Source of the DNA: a virus
Taxonomy: Duplodnaviria > Caudoviricetes
Length of the DNA: 64,000 bases
Virus record (IMG/VR): IMGVR_UViG_3300018012_000099
Strand: one strand, 5' to 3'
Of this stretch, positions 6,129 through 30,103 are shown one piece after another. The position numbers and the translations under genes were made by a program. The notes below the pieces were generated by a model. It was given only the letters and a program-made list of their open reading frames with translations. It made no database searches and had not been told where the DNA came from. Numbering within the stretch: position 1 is the stretch's first letter; each line of letters starts with the position of its first letter.

Positions 6129-9100
6129 CGACCACCAATCTTCGAATCGTTAATGTACAGGTTATTAGCAGCACAGAGATTCAAGCTACTTTCACCGAAA
6201 ATCTGACACCTAATCTCACCACAGCTAACGTTTCCATTATCTCTACCACCAATGATATACCTAATTCAGAGGTGTTATCTGTCAGTGTATCCGCTGCTAT
6301 CCTTACTGTTTCTTGTCAGCCGTTGACCCCATTTGCTACTTATTATATCAAATTTGTCTCTACACCACAACATCTTTTCGAATCAATCAATGGTGATGCG
6401 GTAATTTTGCAGGATGGTGTTTCTAATCAATTTTTGATTACCGGACCTATTGATCCAGATAATCCAGTAAAAGATTATCTGGTTAATTTTTTCAATGGCA
6501 ATATCTACGATACTGATGTTGAAACTTCTGTTATTTCACAGTATATTAATTCTCTTGCTATTAATTTGGCTCGTGCTTTACACGATATTCGACAAATACA
6601 AAATGAGAATTATCTCTCTTTCACCGTAGTGGACGAACAGCAATTTAGAAGCGAGGGACCGTACGATAGATTGTATGAAGAAGGTGCTTATGAAGTATTA
6701 CGTGTTGGATTAGGACCAACCGATGCTCAAGCTACTATTACTCTGACTTTCGATGATTTTCCGAGTTTTCCAGTTACCCTACAGCAGCAAGAGAATGTAG
6801 AAACACCCACCGTTTCTTCTAGTAATCAGGCTGGAACTTTTAATATTGATACTTTGACATTTAACTTGAATAACTCGCCTGTTACTCAGGTAACTAATAT
6901 TGTATTCACTTTAGGAACTGCTAATCCCATTTACACTTACAATATTGAGTTACTAGGATATCAGATCAACAACTCTAGATACGACCAGAATTTCGCTTCT
7001 AGCTATGCTACTTTAAGTACTAATCAGGTTAGATTAAATACTCAGATTCTGAATGATCCATTGTTTGATATTAATCAAATCATCCACATTCAAATTAACT
7101 ACCAAAGCAAAGATTTAGGTCGTGTCATTAGTGCTAGTAATATTGATATTTTTACGACACTCACTTCTATTAGGGAAGTATTGCCGCCAATTGAAAATGT
7201 TTTTACTCTTCAACATGCTCCGATTACTGATAGCAGTAACAACATCCCGCTACTTGGCGGTGTGCTTTTCTTAGATCCCAACTCTAATACTGGGTCTCTG
7301 CATCCTGCCTTTCTAGTAGAAATTCCATTTCGTCTTAGTGCGCTTCCATATGCTCCAGGGCAATACTCTATTGATTATACTACTGGCACCGTTTACGTCT
7401 ATGGCGCTACTTTGGAAAATGATGGTACCGGACCTTCGCCACCGCTGGCAACTTACGATTATCGTTTTACTTATGTTTCCGAAACGGATTATGTCTACGA
7501 TGTAGACCTGTTGGATTTAGTAGCTTTGCCATTGGGCAATCTAATCAAAAATGCTGGTGTAATTACTTTACTATATGAAGAAGTATTAATTCCGGATACT
7601 GACTATGTCGCTGATACCCATATTGAGTCCTTGACGGAGCGCGTACAAAACCGTTTAGTAGCTTTGAATTCGGTGACGACACTCAACTCTCCTATCACTA
7701 ACGTTTTCCAAATTTTCAATGAAACTTCCGGCGAAATCTATACACTAGATCGTTGGACTCGTAATAACCAAATATATTTTCAGTACACCACTCCTCCACG
7801 CGTTCTGCAACAAGTAGGAGAAAGGGCTACTTTCCAAACAGTCTCTAATGAATTGTTGTTTATTAATAGTATTTCTACCAATACTAATTCGGTTAGAGTA
7901 TTCACTATCTTCCTAGCTAATAACACCATTGTAGATGGTACAGAAGATGGTACTGGTTCCTCAATCAACTCCAGTATGAGTTTCAGTAATGGCAATATTT
8001 TTGTGGTCGAGAGATGGTATAATCAAGAGTTTAATGCCACTTTCAACTTTAATAGATTATCTAATCCAGGTGAATACACGGTGGATTATGTTAACGGCAT
8101 AATATATCTGGCTGTTTCCGCTACACAAAGCAATAACGTGGGTGCAGTTACTTATAAGATGGATGTCATTGATCCAAATTTTCCACACGTTTTAAGTGTA
8201 GATGATATTTACTACCGCGTAAGCCCACTAGCTCCTAAGAACAAGCAGTTTGCTTATCTCAGCTTTGGTGATAGTCACATCATTCCAGACAAGCCGGATC
8301 CTTCTGATGAGGCTTTCCTTAATGGTTTCGTGGGTGCACCTTATCAGCTATTCAATAATCAAGTAGGAACTTTTGTCAGCAGCAGTTTCTTACCTGGCGT
8401 GACCAATCAAGTTAAGTTTGTTAGGGGCGTGTTTGAATACCAAGACTTATTGAATAATACTAATCCGATCAATTTTGCTTCTGCTAGTGTTGGTGGCAAT
8501 TTTAATATTACTGTCAATAGTCTAATGGGTCAAGCGTTCGATTCGGTCCAATTTGACGGCACACATTACTATGTTTTGTTCAATCAAAATATTCCATACC
8601 TATCTACAGATATTTTATTTGACTTTACTATCACTAGAGTGTCTGATGGCTATTCTCTGTGGGACGCTACACATGTCGGCACTATCGTTTCTGGTGATCC
8701 AGTTAAACTTGTACTGACTGGTTTTAATTCCCCACATACGGGAGATTTAGTTAGTGTCACTTACTCTTTCACTATTCTGCCACTATCTCGCGTGATTGTC
8801 GATTACAATAAGGGAGATTACTTTGTCGACTATACTTACTTGGCTGATGAATTAATTATTAGTTATGAGTATGGTGACAACGTAATCGATTTCCGTCAAA
8901 GTAACAAAGTAAGCCCTGGTACACCATATTATGTCACTTATCGTGCCGGTGCTCTCAGGGACGCTTTAGTCAAGAACTTCGGTTCTTTAGTTAACTTGCC
9001 AGAATTAGCTTCTCTGGACGTTAATTTCCCACGTGAAAGATATCGCGATGCCCTGATGGCAGCCCTCTCCTCCTTCTTACAAGGACCTACGGTTGCAGCC

Positions 9101-19227: not shown

Positions 19228-19942
19228 AGTACTCAGCATTATCATTCCGGTTTTCAACAAATACAATTTCACTAAAGCCTGTCTACAAGACCTTGCCAAA
19301 CTGCCCGAGGATCATCAAATTATCGTAGTGGATAACGGAAGTAGCGACGAGACCCAACGCGAGCTAGAGAAAAATAAAAAAATTACCTATCATCGTGAGT
19401 CGGTCAATTTAGGATTTGCCAAGGCGTGCAACGAAGGTTATAGTATAGCAGTCGCGCCGAACATTCTATTTTTAAACAACGACATTCGCGTGAAAACCAA
19501 CCATGAAGGTTGGACTCAAGAACTGATCAAATGGTGCTCGCAGGGCTTAGTAGGACCCACCATGGGGCAATTAGATAACGAGTTGAACTTCGTACAAGAA
19601 GCCAATCGATCCCTCCCAGGTAAATCTTACATGTCAGGTTGGTGCCTTGCATCTTCCAAAGAAATTTGGGACAAACTGGAAATTAGACGAGATACCACGA
19701 TCCTCTACGATCGAACTCCAGCCCCTCAAATATTCTCGGAAGAATTTGGTTTAGCATATTTTGAGGATACGGATCTCTCATTTAGAGCTAGGAAGTTGGG
19801 AATTGCTATGCAGGTCATAGACATGCCAGTGGTTCATTTTGGCAAGCAAACCAGTCGTCAATTAAATACACATCAGTTGTATAAACAAGCAAGACAAATC
19901 TTTGTCAAGAAGTGGAGTAAGGATAATGCCAGAGGGTCCTGA
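19220..19942 (+). CDS. Glycosyltransferase family 2 (GT-A)
   Basis: LSIIIPVFN, IVVDNGSSDET, NLGFAKACNEG, LFLNND, YFEDTDLSFRA. Confidence 0.9.
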   Translation: MNKVLSIIIPVFNKYNFTKACLQDLAKLPEDHQIIVVDNGSSDETQRELEKNKKITYHRESVNLGFAKACNEGYSIAVAPNILFLNNDIRVKTNHEGWTQELIKWCSQGLVGPTMGQLDNELNFVQEANRSLPGKSYMSGWCLASSKEIWDKLEIRRDTTILYDRTPAPQIFSEEFGLAYFEDTDLSFRARKLGIAMQVIDMPVVHFGKQTSRQLNTHQLYKQARQIFVKKWSKDNARGS

Positions 19943-20726
19943 GGTGCGTCTAAGTGTGGAATTAATTCGTCCATTAGTTGTGGGAAAAACTACTGCTGTC
20001 TTTTCTATGCATGGCAGATATCAAAAGACTAATCCAGAAGGACTGGATGCGTTCAAAAACAAATCACCAGTTCTTGATGTAAAAACCAAAGGTAAATTCA
20101 TGTATTGGGTTTTCGAGGATGAATGGTATATGTTTTGCACCTTTGGAATGAGTGGTCAGTGGAGCCCTAAAAGAGGCAAACACCCAGCTCTCGGTATTGA
20201 GTTTACTGATGGAAGTAAAGTGTACTTTAATGATCCGCGCCATTTTGGAACCATTAAATTCGTTCACGGTGAAGCTAACCTCAAAAAGAAACTAGCAGAA
20301 TTAGGTTGGGACCCTTTCGATGGTGCTACAGATTTTAATATTCTGTGGGTTGAATCTAAGATCAAATCTTCTAATAAAACAATTGGCGAAATATTGATGA
20401 ACCAATCTATATTTGCAGGTGTGGGTAATTATATTCGTGCTGAAGCATTATATATATCCAAAATATCTCCTTGGCGTACTGCTAATAGTTTATTGGATGA
20501 AGAGATTTATTCTCTTTGTGATAATATCGTAATTATTATGCAAGAATCATACAAACATCAGGGCGCCACTATCCATACTTATGCTACGCCATATGGTGAA
20601 GAAGGTAAGTATTCTAGTTGTTTTAAAGTTTATGGTCAAAAACAAGATCCATTAGGTAATCCGATTAAGAAAGAAACTACACCAGAAGGCAGAGCTATCC
20701 ATTGGTGTCCAGCAGTACAAAGTTAA
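19926..20726 (+). CDS. Fpg/Nei DNA glycosylase/AP lyase, zincless-finger type
   Basis: Starts MPEGPEV (catalytic Pro2/Glu3). Contains KGKFM, FNDPRHFG and the H2TH motif QSIFAGVGNYIRAEALY. C-terminal finger lacks the four Cys. True start is ATG 19926. Confidence 0.92.
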   Translation: MPEGPEVRLSVELIRPLVVGKTTAVFSMHGRYQKTNPEGLDAFKNKSPVLDVKTKGKFMYWVFEDEWYMFCTFGMSGQWSPKRGKHPALGIEFTDGSKVYFNDPRHFGTIKFVHGEANLKKKLAELGWDPFDGATDFNILWVESKIKSSNKTIGEILMNQSIFAGVGNYIRAEALYISKISPWRTANSLLDEEIYSLCDNIVIIMQESYKHQGATIHTYATPYGEEGKYSSCFKVYGQKQDPLGNPIKKETTPEGRAIHWCPAVQS

Positions 20727-22571: not shown

Positions 22572-23540
22572 ATGAGCAAGAAGATTCTCGTTACGGGTTC
22601 TTGTGGATTTATTTTAGGAAATTACGTTCGCAAAGCCATCTACAGTCAAAAGAAAGAAGCTGATAGGGATACCTTCATCAGTATCGATAGAGTTACAGCT
22701 AACAACTTGAACTCTATGTATTGGAACCAGAACCACAAGTTCTATCCAGCTGATATTCGTGATAATCATGTCATGGATATCATCTTTCAGCGCGAGCAAC
22801 CCGAGATTGTTATTCATGGTGCTGCCGAAACCTTTGTCGATACATCGCTTAGTGATCCGAATTCTTTTGTTACCTCTAATGTATTGGGAACTCAAGTAGT
22901 TATTAATTGCTGTCTTAAACATAATGTTAAGAAATTGGTTTACATCTCTACGGATGAGGTATATGGGCAACTGACCAGCGAGAAAGATATTGCCTGGACC
23001 GAGGAGGCGCCGTTAGACCCTAGGAACCCCTATTCAGCTTCTAAAGCGGCTGGGGAGATGCTGGTCAAAGCAGCCAACGCCAGCCATGGGTTAATTTATA
23101 ACATTACTAGAAGCTCCAACAACTATGGACCCCGCCAGCTCCCCGAGAAGCTGATTCCCAAGGCGATAAAGTGCATCCTGACTGGTCAAAAAATTCCTAT
23201 TTATGGAGAAGGTAAACAGATTCGAGATTGGACCTACGTAGATGACAATTGTAGCGCCATTTCTACGATAGTGGAGAAGGGCGCTTCCAATGAAACTTAT
23301 AACATTTCTGCCCATCAGGAGTTCACTAATATTGAAGTCATCCAGGCAGTATGTAATGCTATGAATGAAGGGTATCAACTTATCTCCTTTATCCCAGATC
23401 CCCGTCCTGGTCACGATTTTCGCTACGCAGTAGATACTTCTAAGCTACAAGCTTTGGGGTGGAAACCTTCCTATAAGCTTAAGGGCGGGCTGGAGGAGAC
23501 GGTGAATTGGTATAAGTTGAACCAGTGGTTTTTGAAGTGA
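22572..23540 (+). CDS. rfbB: dTDP-glucose 4,6-dehydratase (extended SDR)
   Basis: LVTGSCGFILG, HGAAETFVDTS, YISTDEVYG (T-D-E), YSASK (YxxxK), SNNYGPRQLPEKLIP, RDWTYVDD, RPGHDFRYAVD. Confidence 0.9.
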   Translation: MSKKILVTGSCGFILGNYVRKAIYSQKKEADRDTFISIDRVTANNLNSMYWNQNHKFYPADIRDNHVMDIIFQREQPEIVIHGAAETFVDTSLSDPNSFVTSNVLGTQVVINCCLKHNVKKLVYISTDEVYGQLTSEKDIAWTEEAPLDPRNPYSASKAAGEMLVKAANASHGLIYNITRSSNNYGPRQLPEKLIPKAIKCILTGQKIPIYGEGKQIRDWTYVDDNCSAISTIVEKGASNETYNISAHQEFTNIEVIQAVCNAMNEGYQLISFIPDPRPGHDFRYAVDTSKLQALGWKPSYKLKGGLEETVNWYKLNQWFLK

Positions 23541-23546
23541 TATAAT
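23538..23546 (+). promoter_or_regulatory. Extended -10 promoter (TGnTATAAT) upstream of tubulin
   Basis: Perfect TGATATAAT, also at 54845; variants at 17352, 27557, 45916, 53667 and 59916, all intergenic before non-virion genes. Confidence 0.55.
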
Positions 23547-23566: not shown

Positions 23567-24928
23567 ATGCCAGCAACATCAGTAACGGAACAGGGAAAAC
23601 CAGAAGAAATAGTAGATAACATGCCTAATACAGAAGTTAAAACAGAAGATAAAATGGATGCTAGCAAGTTGGCGGCGCTAAAAGCCAAAAGTGAAACCAA
23701 ACAACAGGAGAGTAAGATGGCAGCTAAGATCGTATCAAGAAAAGAAAGAAGTATTGCTTTAGGTGTAGTAGGATCGGGTCAAGCCGGCTCTAGATTAGCT
23801 GAAGCTTTTTATCAGCTAGGCTACGATACAGTAGCTATCAATACTGCCATGCAAGATTTAAAATTTATTAACATTCCAGATGCCAACAAACTATTGTTAG
23901 AGCACGGTTTGGGTGGAGCGGCTAAAGAAATTGAAATTGGTCGTGCGGCAGCCGAATCGCATCGTGGCGAAATTCTTCAAATGCTGAACGATAAGTTAGC
24001 TGGTTCCCAGATTAATTTACTCTGCCTTTCTTTAGGGGGCGGTTCGGGAGCAGGTTCTTGTGAAACTTTGGTTGACGTTCTGTCTGGCACAGGTAAGCCA
24101 CTAGTAGTAATTACTGTGCTCCCGATGGATAATGAAGATGCTCAAACTAAGACTAACGCGTTAGAAACTCTTTCTAAGTTAGCTAGAATGGCTCAAAATA
24201 AAAAGATTAATAACCTAATTGTAGTTGATAACGCTAAACTAGAAGTTATCTACCATAACGTTAGTCAAATGGAATTCTTCGGTGTTGCTAACAAGGCAAT
24301 TGTAGAGCCTATCGATATTTTTAATACGCTCTCTTCCATGCCATCCTCCGTCAAAGGACTTGATCCTATGGAGTGGGGCAAGCTATTCACTGATGGTGAA
24401 GGTTTGACGGTTTATGGGGAATTGACTGTGGATAACTTTTCTGAAGACACCGCTATTGCCGAAGCAGTGGTTAACAATTTGAATGGTAATTTGTTAGCTG
24501 GTGGTTTTGATCTTAAACAATCGAGATATGTGGGCGTAATTATTGCTGCCAACAAAGAGGTTTGGGCAAAGATTCCAAGCTCTAGTATCACTTATGCTAT
24601 GGCTATGATCAATGATCAATGTGGTACTCCTAAGGGAGTTTTCAAAGGTATTTACACCGTAGAAACTCCTGACCCTGTTGTCAAAGTATACAGTATGTTC
24701 AGCGGTCTCGGTTTGCCAGAGTCCCGCGTCACTCAGCTCAAGAAGGAAGCTCACGAGCACACCACCGCTGTCAAGAACAAGGATGAAGCTCGTAACCTCA
24801 ATCTACAATTGGAAACGGGCACTAACGAAACGGTTTCTGCGGCACAAAAGATCAAAGATAAGATGGCTGCCAAATCTTCTGCTTTTGGTAAACTGGTTGG
24901 AGGGGTGGTAGATAGGCGCAAACAATGA
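23567..24928 (+). CDS. Tubulin/FtsZ-family GTPase (PhuZ/TubZ-like)
   Basis: GSGQAGSRLA (T1), AINTA, GLGG, GGGSGAG (tubulin signature), VVDN, T7-like GLDPME; charged N- and C-terminal tails; AAGGAG SD. Confidence 0.88.
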   Translation: MPATSVTEQGKPEEIVDNMPNTEVKTEDKMDASKLAALKAKSETKQQESKMAAKIVSRKERSIALGVVGSGQAGSRLAEAFYQLGYDTVAINTAMQDLKFINIPDANKLLLEHGLGGAAKEIEIGRAAAESHRGEILQMLNDKLAGSQINLLCLSLGGGSGAGSCETLVDVLSGTGKPLVVITVLPMDNEDAQTKTNALETLSKLARMAQNKKINNLIVVDNAKLEVIYHNVSQMEFFGVANKAIVEPIDIFNTLSSMPSSVKGLDPMEWGKLFTDGEGLTVYGELTVDNFSEDTAIAEAVVNNLNGNLLAGGFDLKQSRYVGVIIAANKEVWAKIPSSSITYAMAMINDQCGTPKGVFKGIYTVETPDPVVKVYSMFSGLGLPESRVTQLKKEAHEHTTAVKNKDEARNLNLQLETGTNETVSAAQKIKDKMAAKSSAFGKLVGGVVDRRKQ

Positions 24929-24988
24929 GTAGTCTATACTGGATTTATTGTCTAGAGAATAAAATCGATGAAAAATATAGGAAAAGTA

Positions 24989-25267
24989 ATGAATCAGGAC
25001 AATAAACATAGAATGGTATCCCTTTTAGGTAGTTGCCTAAATAAACTAGTAACCGTTTATACAGATGCGGGAACCAACTATACTGGTGTGTTGAAAGAGA
25101 TTAAACCAGAAATTATTGATAACTACATAATATTAAGCACCTGGGATTCTTCTTCTCAAAAAGTAGATGGTTCTAAAATAGTCTCTTTTTACTGTGGCGA
25201 AGATGGGCTTAACCTGGAAGTAAGAGAGCTTATTGGAAAGTTTTATGAGAATAGGAGAAAGTCATAA
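24989..25267 (+). CDS. Small Sm/LSm-like beta-barrel protein 1 (putative)
   Basis: L-x2-LNKLVTVYTDAGTNYTGVLKEI matches an Sm1-type pattern; paralog of 25870..26094. Confidence 0.5.
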   Translation: MNQDNKHRMVSLLGSCLNKLVTVYTDAGTNYTGVLKEIKPEIIDNYIILSTWDSSSQKVDGSKIVSFYCGEDGLNLEVRELIGKFYENRRKS

Positions 25268-25551
25268 TGGAAATTTTAGAATCGGACAAATTCTATGATG
25301 TATTGGCTAAATTAGATGGTACGGAAGTTACCGTATACACTACCCACGGGAAAAATTTTAGTGGTCTTTTGCATTTTTCACGCAACAGTTTTGTGGTGGA
25401 ACTTATTCCGACCGATAAATGGGAATTAAAGCGATATGGCTCTTCTTTTGTTCCAATTGGTGTTGTCTTTGCTGCACGCGAATTAAAACCGTGCAGTTCT
25501 GATGAATCTAAAGATGATGGTTGTGATGACTGCGATGAAAGCAAAGGTTAA
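25267..25551 (+). CDS. Small Sm/LSm-like beta-barrel protein 2 with acidic tail (putative)
   Basis: LAKLDGTEVTVYTTHGKNFSGLL; Sm2-like FVPIGVVFAA; acidic tail DESKDDGCDDCDES. Confidence 0.5.
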   Translation: MEILESDKFYDVLAKLDGTEVTVYTTHGKNFSGLLHFSRNSFVVELIPTDKWELKRYGSSFVPIGVVFAARELKPCSSDESKDDGCDDCDESKG

Positions 25552-25553
25552 AG

Positions 25554-25862
25554 ATGGAATCGGATATTCTTAAGAATTTTATCAAACAAGACGTGGAAAT
25601 ATTGGTGGGAGGCGTGTGGATCGAAGGTTATTTGCTCCCTATCGTCAAAAACATCGTGACATTAGTTCCAATTGGATTAGCTAAAGAACATTATGGACCT
25701 ACCGCTTGCAAAATGGAAGTTATCCAGGCTATTAGGCAGGTGAGAAGACCAGCGCAGACCAATTCCGCCGTTCCCAACGATCCGTCCCCTCCGGCATCAG
25801 TTCGTTCCGGTTTTGAAGCAGCTCAACAAGGTCACCCCGGTAACCGATTTGTCCATAAATAA
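25554..25862 (+). CDS. Small Sm/LSm-like (DUF2642/YuzF-like) protein 3 (putative)
   Basis: LKNFIKQDVEILVGGVWIEGYL...IVTLV...MEVIQAIR. Confidence 0.45.
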   Translation: MESDILKNFIKQDVEILVGGVWIEGYLLPIVKNIVTLVPIGLAKEHYGPTACKMEVIQAIRQVRRPAQTNSAVPNDPSPPASVRSGFEAAQQGHPGNRFVHK

Positions 25863-25869
25863 GGAGAAA

Positions 25870-26094
25870 ATGATGAGACAGAATGAACATAGGATGGTAT
25901 CTCTAATTGGTAACTATTTAAGTAAAAATGTCAGCATAAATATAAGCGGTGGCACCGTGCTTTATGGCAAATTACTGGAAATAAAACCAGAAAAAATTGA
26001 TAATTATTTAATTCTTGAAACAAGCTTTGGAACAAGATATGTGGATGCATCACGCATAGAATCTTTTGCAATTGATGAACACAAGCCGGAATAA
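25870..26094 (+). CDS. Small Sm/LSm-like beta-barrel protein 4 (putative)
   Basis: LSKNVSINISGGTVLYGKLLEI...YLIL...YVDASRIESF; AAGGAG SD; paralog of protein 1. Confidence 0.55.
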   Translation: MMRQNEHRMVSLIGNYLSKNVSINISGGTVLYGKLLEIKPEKIDNYLILETSFGTRYVDASRIESFAIDEHKPE

Positions 26095-26108: not shown

Positions 26109-26681
26109 ATGTCTCAATGCACAATTTATCTACTTAAAAATACCATTAATTCTAAAGTTTACGTAGGTCAAACTTGGTATACTTTGCCAGAACGATGGAA
26201 AGGCGGTGCTGGTTACGTGCACTGTGCATATTTACATAATGCAATCAATAAATATGGTGCTGATAAATTTTGCTACGAAATTTTAGCTACCACCTCTAAT
26301 CAAGAAAATGCCGATTATCTCGAAGATTATTACATCAATTATTTTGACAGTCGTAACAAGGATAAAGGATATAATATTAGAGAAGGTGGCAGTCGTGGCA
26401 AAAATTCTGATGAAACTATAATTAAAATGTCCAAGGCGCAAATGGGTGAGAAAAATGCTATGTTTGGCAAACGTCACTCACCAGATACTAAAAAATTGAT
26501 GTCGGAAAATAGAGAAGATAGTAGCGGTGAGAAAAATCCTAGAGCGGTTCTCACTGAAAAATTAGTAGAAGAAATTAGAATTGATACCAGATCTGAAAGA
26601 GTTATAGCAAAAGAATATGGCGTATCTCGATCTACCATTAACAGTATCAAACGTGGTATAAATTGGAGAAACAATGGCTAA
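26109..26681 (+). CDS. GIY-YIG homing endonuclease with NUMOD3 and C-terminal HTH
   Basis: TIYLLKN..NSKVYVGQT, LHNAINKYG..F, GYNIREGG, NAMFGKRHSPDTK (NUMOD3), NPRAVLTE. Confidence 0.88.
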   Translation: MSQCTIYLLKNTINSKVYVGQTWYTLPERWKGGAGYVHCAYLHNAINKYGADKFCYEILATTSNQENADYLEDYYINYFDSRNKDKGYNIREGGSRGKNSDETIIKMSKAQMGEKNAMFGKRHSPDTKKLMSENREDSSGEKNPRAVLTEKLVEEIRIDTRSERVIAKEYGVSRSTINSIKRGINWRNNG

Positions 26682-27528
26682 TTTAATTAAAGGGATAGAT
26701 GTCAGTATTATTCAGGGCAATATTGATTGGCAGGCTGTGGTTGCATCTGGTATACAATTTTGTATAATGAGATGTGGGGTCGGCAACGGTGGAATAGATT
26801 CTAATTATGCTAAAAATGTTGCTGGGGCTAAGGCAGCAGGAATTAAAGTGGCATGTTATCATTTTATTTATCCTTTACCTACCATACCTTCACAGCCTTT
26901 ACGCGATCCTATTAAACAGGCTCAATATCATTTTAACGCTTCTTTGGGCGAATTAACTTGTGTGGATTGTGAATGGCCCGCACCACAAGATTGGAGTAAA
27001 TGGGGCTGTAATTCTGCGCAGCTCAACCAGTGGATGTTAACCTATTTACAAGAATACGAGCGCCTTAGTGGTCGTAAGCCGCTTATTTATACTTATCCAA
27101 ATTGGGCTGATAATGTTGGTTTTCAAGCAGCATTTTCCCAGTATCCCTTGTGGATTGCCAGTTATCAAGCCAATCCGGACATTCCGCACCCATGGTCCGA
27201 TTGGGTGCTATGGCAGAACACAGGTGGAGGCGGACATTTACCAACCACAGGTGCACCCGTAGATACTGATTTAGCTAAAGATCTTTCATTATGGGATACA
27301 ACAGCAGCACCCACTAATGAGCCTATACCAGATCACCAACCTGATCCTCCTATCAATTCAAACCCAGTTCCAGCACCCATCACGCCACCCCCGGCTGTAA
27401 CGCCAACTTCACCGCCTGTTATTATGGTGCCACCTACTACCAACACCGTGAGTAAGGATTTTAATATTGTGATGGGATTATTTCGTGCCTTATTGAATTT
27501 ATTTAAAGAAGAGTTGCCCAAGCTATAA
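26674..27528 (+). CDS. Endolysin, GH25 muramidase, with Pro-rich linker
   Basis: KGIDVS..QGNIDW, ACYHF, DCE (DxE), PLIYT, YPLWIASY, WVLWQ, VDTD; followed by a Pro/Thr-rich tail. Confidence 0.88.
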   Translation: MANLIKGIDVSIIQGNIDWQAVVASGIQFCIMRCGVGNGGIDSNYAKNVAGAKAAGIKVACYHFIYPLPTIPSQPLRDPIKQAQYHFNASLGELTCVDCEWPAPQDWSKWGCNSAQLNQWMLTYLQEYERLSGRKPLIYTYPNWADNVGFQAAFSQYPLWIASYQANPDIPHPWSDWVLWQNTGGGGHLPTTGAPVDTDLAKDLSLWDTTAAPTNEPIPDHQPDPPINSNPVPAPITPPPAVTPTSPPVIMVPPTTNTVSKDFNIVMGLFRALLNLFKEELPKL

Positions 27529-29098: not shown

Positions 29099-29675
29099 AG
29101 GGGAGCTTAATTCCATCCCTAACGAAAAATACGAGAAGTTCTTTGCTAAATTCGACGAGATCGAAACATTAGAGGTGTCACGATGGAAAATTGCTCACCT
29201 CCTCGGCTATTTTTGTCAAAAATGGAAAGCTATCTATGGTAATGATTATCATTGGAAATTCAATAACCAAAACCCTAACAAGTGTTTCGAGGTGTGGCAG
29301 ATGAACACGCTGGTGGCTAAACTATCAGCCAACCCACAAATCCTTAAAGATTATATTGATTGGGTTTTCGTCAATATCGTTCCCAAGAAGAGCAAACTGC
29401 GTTCTATTTCTTTTATGACCAATGATGATGTAGTCATTCCGTACAAGATGAACGTGTTATTAGGGGGTAAGAAGAATCTCAACGTGGATCGTTCTACTCT
29501 TTTGCCCTTTGAATATCGTCATATTTTAGGTCATTGTGGATTATTATCTCTCGTTAGCTACGGAGATTTAGCTTTTGCTTATCAAATGGATCCCCGTCCA
29601 GATAATCTTTCAGATGCCATTAATCAAATGGTCGAGGCTGGGTTCGATCCAGAAATTCTTAAAAGGATCGTATGA
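29082..29675 (+). CDS. Hypothetical protein in the replication module (possible initiator or loader partner)
   Basis: 197-aa coupled ORF between the SF2 helicase and DnaC; assigned by position only. Confidence 0.4.
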   Translation: MIKKSEGELNSIPNEKYEKFFAKFDEIETLEVSRWKIAHLLGYFCQKWKAIYGNDYHWKFNNQNPNKCFEVWQMNTLVAKLSANPQILKDYIDWVFVNIVPKKSKLRSISFMTNDDVVIPYKMNVLLGGKKNLNVDRSTLLPFEYRHILGHCGLLSLVSYGDLAFAYQMDPRPDNLSDAINQMVEAGFDPEILKRIV

Positions 29676-30103
29676 TACCACAACCCGGACAACATATTAA
29701 ATGTTTTTTGCGCAGCGGCAATATAGTAGAGGGTATCGTAGAAGAGTGGACCCAAGAGCAAGCTGTATTGAAAACTTTAGATCACCAAAGTTTAATGATT
29801 ATTCACAGTCCAGCCCAGGATATACTACTAACCAAAGTATTGCTCCACACGGGAATCGCCACTCACTCGAGAGCGCAAGAAATAGCCGACAAAATTAGAG
29901 AAAAGGCAGCAGAGGAAGGTCAGCCTGAACCTGACGAACAATCTTTGGATGCAATGACCAAAGCACAATTACATATCGAGTTAGCTGAACAAGAACGTCG
30001 TGTGGTTGCCGAGAAGATGAAGGATCACTATCCTGATTCACAGGCACCTAGAAAGAAAACCTATGGATACCCCGGATTTTTCAAAAAGCCAAGCACTTCG
30101 TAA
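29672..30103 (+). CDS. Hypothetical protein with an N-terminal small beta-barrel (Sm/SH3-like) and helical C-terminus
   Basis: PGQHIKCFLRSGNIVEGIVEEW...AVLK...LMII pattern; ATGA overlap. Confidence 0.4.
   Translation: MIPQPGQHIKCFLRSGNIVEGIVEEWTQEQAVLKTLDHQSLMIIHSPAQDILLTKVLLHTGIATHSRAQEIADKIREKAAEEGQPEPDEQSLDAMTKAQLHIELAEQERRVVAEKMKDHYPDSQAPRKKTYGYPGFFKKPSTS

Follow-up and report, generated by a model that had tools for sequence, protein, structure and literature searches.

Sm-fold small β-barrel genes in a variable slot behind the tubulin gene of uncultured jumbo phages

What could be the role of a run of small genes lying directly behind the tubulin gene of a large phage? This question is raised by the IMG/VR virus record IMGVR_UViG_3300018012_000099, a Caudoviricetes stretch of 64,000 nucleotides (nt), referred to below as the window, in which four open reading frames (ORFs) of 74–102 amino acids (aa) follow a TubZ-like tubulin gene at positions 24989–26094 of the + strand. 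The first-pass annotation had read these ORFs, here called O1 to O4, as Sm/Hfq-like paralogs that could assemble into a heteromeric ring, which would chaperone phage RNA or couple it to the tubulin filament. Comparison with related phages supports this interpretation in part: the fold call was right, while the functional inference finds no support in the relatives. We lean towards a reading in which the array consists of diverged tandem paralogs of a lineage-specific family of Sm-fold small β-barrels, which occupy an accessory slot of variable content, flanked by the genes for tubulin and a GH25 lysozyme, and whose subtypes act separately.

All four array genes are real. The intergenic distances O1/O2, O2/O3 and O3/O4 are only −1, 2 and 7 nt, so that the genes are coupled, as had been noted at first sight. 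For O1, an upstream ATG at 24968 would give a protein of 99 aa, but the start at 24989 is favoured by its better AGGA spacing and by the same start in a database copy. The ATG of O4 lies 7 nt past the O3 stop codon and is preceded by AAGGAG; a 93-aa form of O4 from a TTG start was considered an over-extension and was set aside in favour of this ATG. An ORF on the opposite strand within O2 (25293–25544, 83 aa) was also discarded, because the frame on the + strand is the one conserved in relatives. The earlier view of O1 and O4 as clear paralogs holds, with 50% identity over 76 aa (E-value 9e-19), and the duplication can be seen at the DNA level as two blocks of 73–80% identity with a constant spacing of 881 nt. 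Pairwise comparison of O1 with O2 and of O3 with O4 gave weak similarity. For O3, 30 homologs at 41–89% identity were found in a set of 5.8 billion proteins; word-indexed homolog searches with O1 and O2 returned self-matches only, and O2-type and O1-type genes were found at the same slot of related phages. Combined, the proteins fall into three subtypes: type A is the core alone or the core with a short helix (O1 and O4), type B the core with an acidic, cysteine-bearing tail (O2), and type C the core followed by a proline-rich linker and an end motif (O3).

Structure models were obtained for O1 and O3, and the fold of O2 and O4 was assigned by homology. The AlphaFold (AF2) model of O3 has a predicted local distance difference test score (pLDDT) above 90 over residues 1–65, with a helix at residues 3–9 followed by five strands. 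That of O1, with a mean pLDDT of 83, shows a helix at residues 8–16, five strands and an additional C-terminal helix at residues 76–91. The best matches of both models in the PDB are Sm, LSm, SmAP, Hfq and Gemin6 structures. O1–O4 are accordingly predicted, by modelling for O1 and O3 and by homology for O2 and O4, to combine an N-terminal helix with a strongly bent five-stranded antiparallel sheet, the fold of the Sm/LSm/Hfq superfamily. Rings of this superfamily assemble by pairing of β4 in one subunit with β5 in its neighbour.

Profile comparisons with the PDB, which are independent of the structure models, gave matches of the same type. A mixed profile of A- and B-type sequences matched the Pyrococcus abyssi SmAP (1h64) over the whole domain at an E-value of 6.6e-4, followed nearly always by Sm, LSm and Hfq chains. 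With the B-type-only profile (A7), 1h64 was again the best match (3.2e-3) and all ten matches were Sm-type or Sm-like, while the A-type-only profile (A8) hit the Sm-like entry 1ycy best (2e-4), then mostly LSm and Hfq. The O3 family profile matched no PDB sequence, and O3 was placed by fold comparison. A KOW-type barrel, the kind of non-Sm structure that would have contradicted the first-pass fold call, is ruled out for O1–O4 by the Sm-type fold and profile matches.

An exhaustive profile search of 1.84 billion representative proteins returned 79 relatives at E ≤ 1e-3, and 65 of the shorter sequences among them, which form one BLAST-connected set, make up alignment A5. The Sm fold has as its hallmark residue a strictly conserved glycine midway along the bent strand β2 (PMC3710371). 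Such a glycine is found in both alignments: the sole invariant column of A5 is G33 (O1 numbering), which lies within β2 (residues 30–40), and G25 is invariant in the alignment of the O3 family (A2), likewise within β2 (residues 21–27). The sequence motif that had drawn attention to the array stands as a common pattern, V-x-V/I followed by G-x4-G-x-L; its reported spacing of three residues does not, as most copies have four. When the O3 family was compared with the O1/O2/O4 family by hhalign, a probability of 96.4% and an E-value of 1.4e-9 were obtained over 70 columns. In addition, an O2-type protein of another phage matches O3 directly (E 4.6e-5), and the hidden Markov models (HMMs) of subtypes A, B and C cross-match each other. 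These comparisons indicate homology between the O3 family and the O1/O2/O4 set, which together belong to one Sm-fold superfamily. Among the relatives are also three long proteins (P0043, 541 aa; P0058, 1627 aa; P0064, 3217 aa) with 4 to 10 tandem domains that match the A/B-type profile; the barrel therefore serves as a repeat module, too.

The array proteins fall below the gathering thresholds of Pfam in all four cases. Against LSM (PF01423; threshold 23.4 bits), O1 scored 13.2 bits (E 0.074) and O2, O3 and O4 gave no match; against DUF6897 (PF21838; threshold 23.9 bits), O4 scored 14.9 bits (E 0.022) and O1, O2 and O3 gave no match; and O2 matched SM-ATX at 0.0077, below threshold. The 65 scanned relatives yielded matches at E ≤ 0.01 to DUF6897 (24), LSM (9), SM-ATX (5) and DUF2642 (3), and an A-type relative of 73 aa in the same slot of locus L006 reached 25.6 bits with DUF6897, above the gathering threshold. 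Scanning of PHROGs gave no significant family for O1–O4, no match to Pfam Phage_Hfq (PF23874) was obtained from O1 to O4 or from the ORF at 29672 (O5, see below) at E-values up to 1, and the bacterial Hfq family profile had no significant match from the array proteins. LSM, Hfq and DUF2642 had been named as the relevant comparisons in the first-pass annotation, and the Foldseek and profile matches proved to be of the Sm type.

The two tailed subtypes differ in the sequence that follows the barrel. In type B, the part past the last strand starts with I-R-E-h-K-P and goes on with an acidic segment that contains one to three cysteines; D-D-C-x-D-C-D-E-S-K-G, or a sequence close to it, is a very frequent ending. 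The acidic tail first noticed in O2 is borne out by a net charge of −5 over its last 21 residues. The extreme C-terminus of B-type proteins (O2, P0033, P0038, P0051, P0052 and others) is acidic, carries C-x2-C or a single cysteine, and has the E-S-K-G end. In type C, alignment A2 displays a conserved core (residues 1–65), a proline-rich linker of variable sequence and a conserved end motif V/I-R/K-S-S/G-F/L ... P-G-x-R/K-F; in O3 this basic and aromatic motif reads V-R-S-S/G-F ... P-G-x-R-F-V-x-K. The conservation of terminal peptides on flexible linkers in types B and C suggests that they are docking motifs, and the cysteine-bearing end of type B could be a metal-binding or docking peptide.

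To follow the array through related phages, the slot was taken to extend from the tubulin gene to the conserved gene that comes next, and its content was scored with the A, B and C subtype HMMs on every ORF. Besides the window, 19 related loci were compared, 11 of which were collected through the tubulin in IMG/VR (69–94% identity) and the others through O2- or O3-type homologs. The contigs of these loci reach 492 kb and thus belong to a jumbo-phage clade, which consists of uncultured phages found in wetland metagenomes. Among phages with tubulins 69–94% identical, the slot holds between 0 and 4 Sm-fold genes in varied combinations. The window has A-B-C-A′ and an endonuclease gene, and its closest relative, L001 (tubulin 94% identical), has B-C. 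B-C is also found in L016 and L019 and, behind a fragment, in L005, while L013 carries A-A-B-C and L017 an unassigned gene followed by B-A-C. C follows an unassigned gene in L002, stands between two unassigned genes in L014, follows an A gene (69% identical to O1) in L015, and in the P0028 contig comes right after tubulin, before two unrecognised genes. L006 shows A-B up to the contig end, and L008 A only. Six loci (L003, L004, L007, L009, L010 and L011) have the tubulin gene and no family member in the slot. In the slots of L002 and L014, a gene of 92 aa and one of 106 aa, respectively, were recognised by no subtype HMM; a short D-N-Y-I motif that the former has in common with O1 was too weak to assign it as an O1 relative and was not used. 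Furthermore, a relative of 447 kb (CheckV 100% complete) has a tubulin of 71% identity, and no match to the C-type or the A/B-type profile was found in it.

The comparison with L001 shows the turnover at closer range. The two DNAs are collinear at 76–80% identity with two exceptions. The region 24917–25512, which comprises O1 and most of O2, has no DNA similarity to L001, and O2 is only 40% identical to its L001 counterpart at the protein level, compared with 89% for O3. The other exception is an insertion of about 810 bp that carries O4 and the homing endonuclease gene: the alignment runs to 25876 and resumes at 26686, while L001 is continuous at its position 7953. O4 has therefore been gained or lost together with the homing endonuclease. 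As a side aspect, a small Sm-like gene such as O4 may travel with a free-standing homing endonuclease. An ORF fragment upstream of the O1-type gene of L015 resembles a helix-turn-helix C-terminus and has no significant similarity to the window endonuclease, so that support for A-type genes travelling with homing endonucleases comes from the window only.

Between close relatives, members of this family have thus been gained and lost, exchanged and duplicated, and since O4 in addition shares an indel with a homing endonuclease, the array genes appear to be dispensable add-ons. Their distribution argues against a fixed four-subunit ring, because co-inheritance would be expected of such a set and the set is not co-inherited. 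It also argues against an obligate tubulin partner, because such a partner would be expected with every tubulin and several tubulin-bearing relatives lack the family.

The tubulin itself, recognised as such in the first-pass annotation, is confirmed by its Pfam matches (Table 1). Its sole match in the cultured-phage collection is gene 138 of Bacillus phage G at 24% identity, and all close homologs (69–94% identity) come from uncultured contigs, the longest of which has 492 kb. The gene is the mark of an unstudied clade of jumbo phages that carry a cytoskeletal gene. A sigma-70-like promoter match precedes the tubulin gene, and no terminator-like site was found from there to the array end; co-transcription of tubulin and array from this promoter is therefore likely, judging from the sequence. 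No iteron or centromere-like repeats were found near the tubulin gene. Rfam and tRNA scans of the window gave nothing, and hence no candidate partner RNA; a DNA search of the INPHARED phage collection with the window gave no match; and the window DNA is listed only in DNA runs of wetland metagenomes, with no RNA run among them. Downstream of O4, the gene order is homing endonuclease, GH25 lysozyme, helicase, a 197-aa protein, O5, DnaC-like loader and DnaB. L002 (8758–9102) and L014 (6496–6855) have an extra gene of about 115 aa (start M-P-S-Q-Y) between lysozyme and helicase, and this site is a second variable slot of the region. Upstream of tubulin, the window encodes an Fpg/Nei-type DNA glycosylase, whose L014 homolog matches Pfam Fapy_DNA_glyco and H2TH.

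Table 1. Features of the window and their positions.
Feature	Positions	Strand	Description
DNA glycosylase	19902–20726		Fpg/Nei-type; N-terminus P-E-G-P-E-V; inside a glycosyltransferase/RmlB cluster
Promoter match	23517–23546	+	Sigma-70-like; TTGAAC, 18 nt, TG-TATAAT; 10 of 12 consensus positions and extended −10; consensus match only
Tubulin	23567–24928	+	TubZ-like phage tubulin, 453 aa; Pfam Tubulin 4.1e-14, TubZ-like_C 5e-8; PHROG "tubulin PhuZ" 5.6e-8
O1	24989–25267	+	A-type Sm-fold protein (modelled), 92 aa; extra C-terminal helix
O2	25267–25551	+	B-type Sm-fold protein (by homology), 94 aa; acidic Cys-containing tail, end ESKG
O3	25554–25862	+	C-type Sm-fold protein (modelled), 102 aa; core 1–65, Pro-rich linker, conserved C-terminal motif
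O4	25870–26094	+	A-type Sm-fold protein (by homology), 74 aa; O1 paralog
Insertion relative to L001	25877–26685	+	About 810 bp; O4 and homing endonuclease
Homing endonuclease	26109–26681	+	GIY-YIG/NUMOD3, 190 aa; NUMOD3 1.3e-12, GIY-YIG 3.4e-6, PHROG homing endonuclease 5e-31
O5	29672–30103	+	143 aa; probable Sm-like N-terminal domain without N-terminal helix; charged helical middle; tail Y-G-Y-P-G-F-F-K-K-P

The fifth similar domain that had been proposed at 29672 (O5) is a weaker case. Its profile matched solely Hfq, LSm and EDC3 chains in the PDB, which agrees with the proposal, but the matches are weak (best E 4e-3) and hhalign linked O5 to the O1/O2/O4 family (A5) with a probability of only 47% over 33 columns. 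Against the O3 family (A2) hhalign returned nothing, and O5 has no Pfam match. O5 is probably another Sm-like barrel, one that lacks the N-terminal helix. It is present in nearly every related locus that reaches its region, with homologs among L001–L016, and always sits immediately upstream of the genes for the DnaC-like loader and DnaB. O5 lies outside the variable array; its gene is part of the conserved replication module, and the protein may belong to that module as well. The P-G-x-F...K end of O5 bears a loose resemblance to the end motif of O3.

How might these barrels function? In the reading towards which we lean, each subtype would act alone as a small Sm-type platform, probably as a homo-oligomer like Hfq and the archaeal SmAPs. 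A non-canonical surface of the platform would serve to bind single-stranded nucleic acid or a host factor. Recruitment or regulation of partners would fall to the C-terminal peptides of types B and C, and the host-type promoter ahead of tubulin would drive expression from an early stage of infection. In a complex prediction with four copies of the O3 core (residues 1–66, family alignment), the median score was 0.31, with the mark set at 0.42 and a score of 0.50 for one unrelated control.

Several observations weigh against separately acting, nucleic acid-binding barrels. The uridine pocket of the P. abyssi SmAP (entry 1m8v) is formed by His37 and Asn39 in loop L3 and by Arg63-Gly64-Asp65 in loop L5. 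In the profile alignment to 1h64, which covers O1, O2 and O4 (O3 is not alignable by sequence), these residues are not kept: R63-G64-D65 align to D-G-S in O1, D-A-S in O4 and P-I-G in O2, His37 falls on a variable column, and Asn39 falls in an insertion with no matching column. In addition, O1, O2 and O4 have acidic cores, with isoelectric points of 5.2–5.8. Because the canonical pocket is absent and the cores are acidic, RNA binding by the array proteins, although possible, would need a different surface. The structural neighbours also include barrels that do not act on RNA, namely Gemin6, the Rho inhibitor YaeO/Rof, the spore proteins GerQ and CgeA, and MnxE. Finally, all loci that have B in a completely visible slot also have C (7 of 7), and the two genes are translationally coupled, a co-occurrence that fits a B–C hetero-complex equally well as independent action.

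The ring proposed in the first-pass annotation, in which all four paralogs would form one heteromeric assembly that chaperones phage RNA like the eukaryotic Sm/LSm rings, would suit four diverged paralogs with the predicted Sm fold in one coupled array. Sm-fold proteins can also pair with different partners, and the best Foldseek match of O1 is Gemin6, taken from the Gemin6/Gemin7 heterodimer. However, the slot contents described above (B and C only in L001; A only, C only, A-A-B-C or B-A-C in others), the position of O4 in an indel with the homing endonuclease, the near absence of O1 and O4 homologs elsewhere and the missing uridine-pocket residues make such a ring highly improbable. A smaller complex is somewhat better placed, in which O2 and O3 would form a two-component core, for instance an alternating ring like MnxE3F3, with A-type proteins as optional additions. 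The B and C genes are adjacent and coupled in the window, L001, L005, L013, L016 and L019, with an A gene between them in L017, and B keeps company with C throughout the complete slots. Moreover, MnxE (9bxa_E) is among the Foldseek matches of O1 and O3, with template modelling (TM) scores of 0.46–0.61, and this protein is part of a bacterial E3F3 heterohexamer (PMC5622069); if the MnxE ring is of the Sm type, hetero-rings are not strictly eukaryotic. On the other hand, no recognisable B accompanies C in L002, L014, L015 and the P0028 contig, the close relationship of the loci means that co-occurrence may reflect shared descent only, and the very different identities of O2 and O3 to their L001 counterparts would be unusual for a co-evolving interface. 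We regard such a core as unlikely. Its more elaborate form, a phage heteromeric Sm ring of the B/C pair with A copies as exchangeable subunits and the two tails recruiting distinct partners, possibly tubulin, seems quite unlikely; if true, it would represent a modular hetero-Sm assembly outside eukaryotes.

The proximity to tubulin could alternatively mean that the Sm-like proteins are tubulin accessory factors, which control the TubZ-like filament or attach cargo to it by means of their tail peptides, as TubR and TubY do for TubZ. Wherever present, the Sm-fold genes indeed sit 0–3 genes downstream of tubulin, probably under a common promoter, and they are often start/stop-coupled to it (L006, L008, L013, L016, L019 and the P0028 contig). 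The synteny that the first-pass annotation had looked to is therefore constant where the genes exist, but six tubulin loci have an empty slot, and the complete 447-kb genome keeps its tubulin without a family member. Since the whole region is collinear among the related phages, the adjacency does not count as separate evidence that the two are functionally linked. TubR has a winged-helix DNA-binding fold and is encoded beside tubZ together with centromere repeats, and the array proteins differ from it both in their predicted Sm fold and in the lack of iteron-like repeats around the tubulin gene. A literature search found no paper linking Sm-like proteins to phage tubulins. We give little credit to an accessory role of this kind. 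The barrels might instead serve host takeover or counter-defence by binding and blocking a host protein, such as Rho (in the manner of the Sm-like Rof/YaeO), Hfq or a defence sensor. This proposal is doubtful, as no specific similarity was seen beyond that of the fold in general and the Rof-related matches are within noise.

Among known systems, the closest precedent by description is found in phage T4, whose GoF/MotB.1/Frd.2 proteins are three diverged early paralogs with LSm-like N-terminal barrels; they are non-essential, their function is unknown, and no confident multimer models exist for them (Kim et al. 2025, PMC12152347). The likeness lies in diverged paralogs within one large phage, a five-stranded bent N-terminal barrel, a variable C-terminal part and non-essential accessory genes. 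A "MotB" entry appears far down the BFVD match list (E 0.032, TM score 0.33–0.38), which also contains many uncharacterised phage barrels of the same shape, including a PhiPA3 protein. The nearest sequence families are DUF6897 (PF21838) and DUF2642/YuzF (PF10842), which are uncharacterised bacterial Sm-like families, and the best structural neighbour of O3 in the Atlas is a DUF6897 cluster (TM scores 0.62/0.82). The window proteins differ from these families in that none of the four reaches threshold, and the B and C tails lie outside them. Phage_Hfq, a phage-encoded Hfq-like domain, is a feature-based Atlas neighbour of O3 (score 0.87) and serves as a lead only. Archaeal SmAPs and bacterial Hfq form homomeric rings that bind U- or A-rich RNA, whereas the proteins studied here do not conserve the uridine pocket, score below the LSM threshold and have no Hfq match. 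The eukaryotic Sm/LSm hetero-heptamers and Gemin6/Gemin7 are alike in that several diverged Sm paralogs are encoded per genome; the eukaryotic ring subunits, however, are a fixed co-inherited set, while closely related phages carry anything from 0 to 4 of the genes described here. That a large phage can encode multiple Sm-like paralogs was thus already known, and the family, its three subtypes and the tail motifs are new.

Sm-fold barrels are proving to be common among the small uncharacterised genes of large phages, and none of them has an established role. The slot behind the tubulin gene offers a natural experiment in this respect, with three subtypes, two of which have conserved tails, and a content that changes between near-identical phages. 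The family is therefore well suited to studies of ring formation by phage Sm-like proteins, of their ligands and of the partners recruited by the tails. At the same time, the comparative data correct the idea of a eukaryote-like four-subunit ring tied to the phage cytoskeleton.

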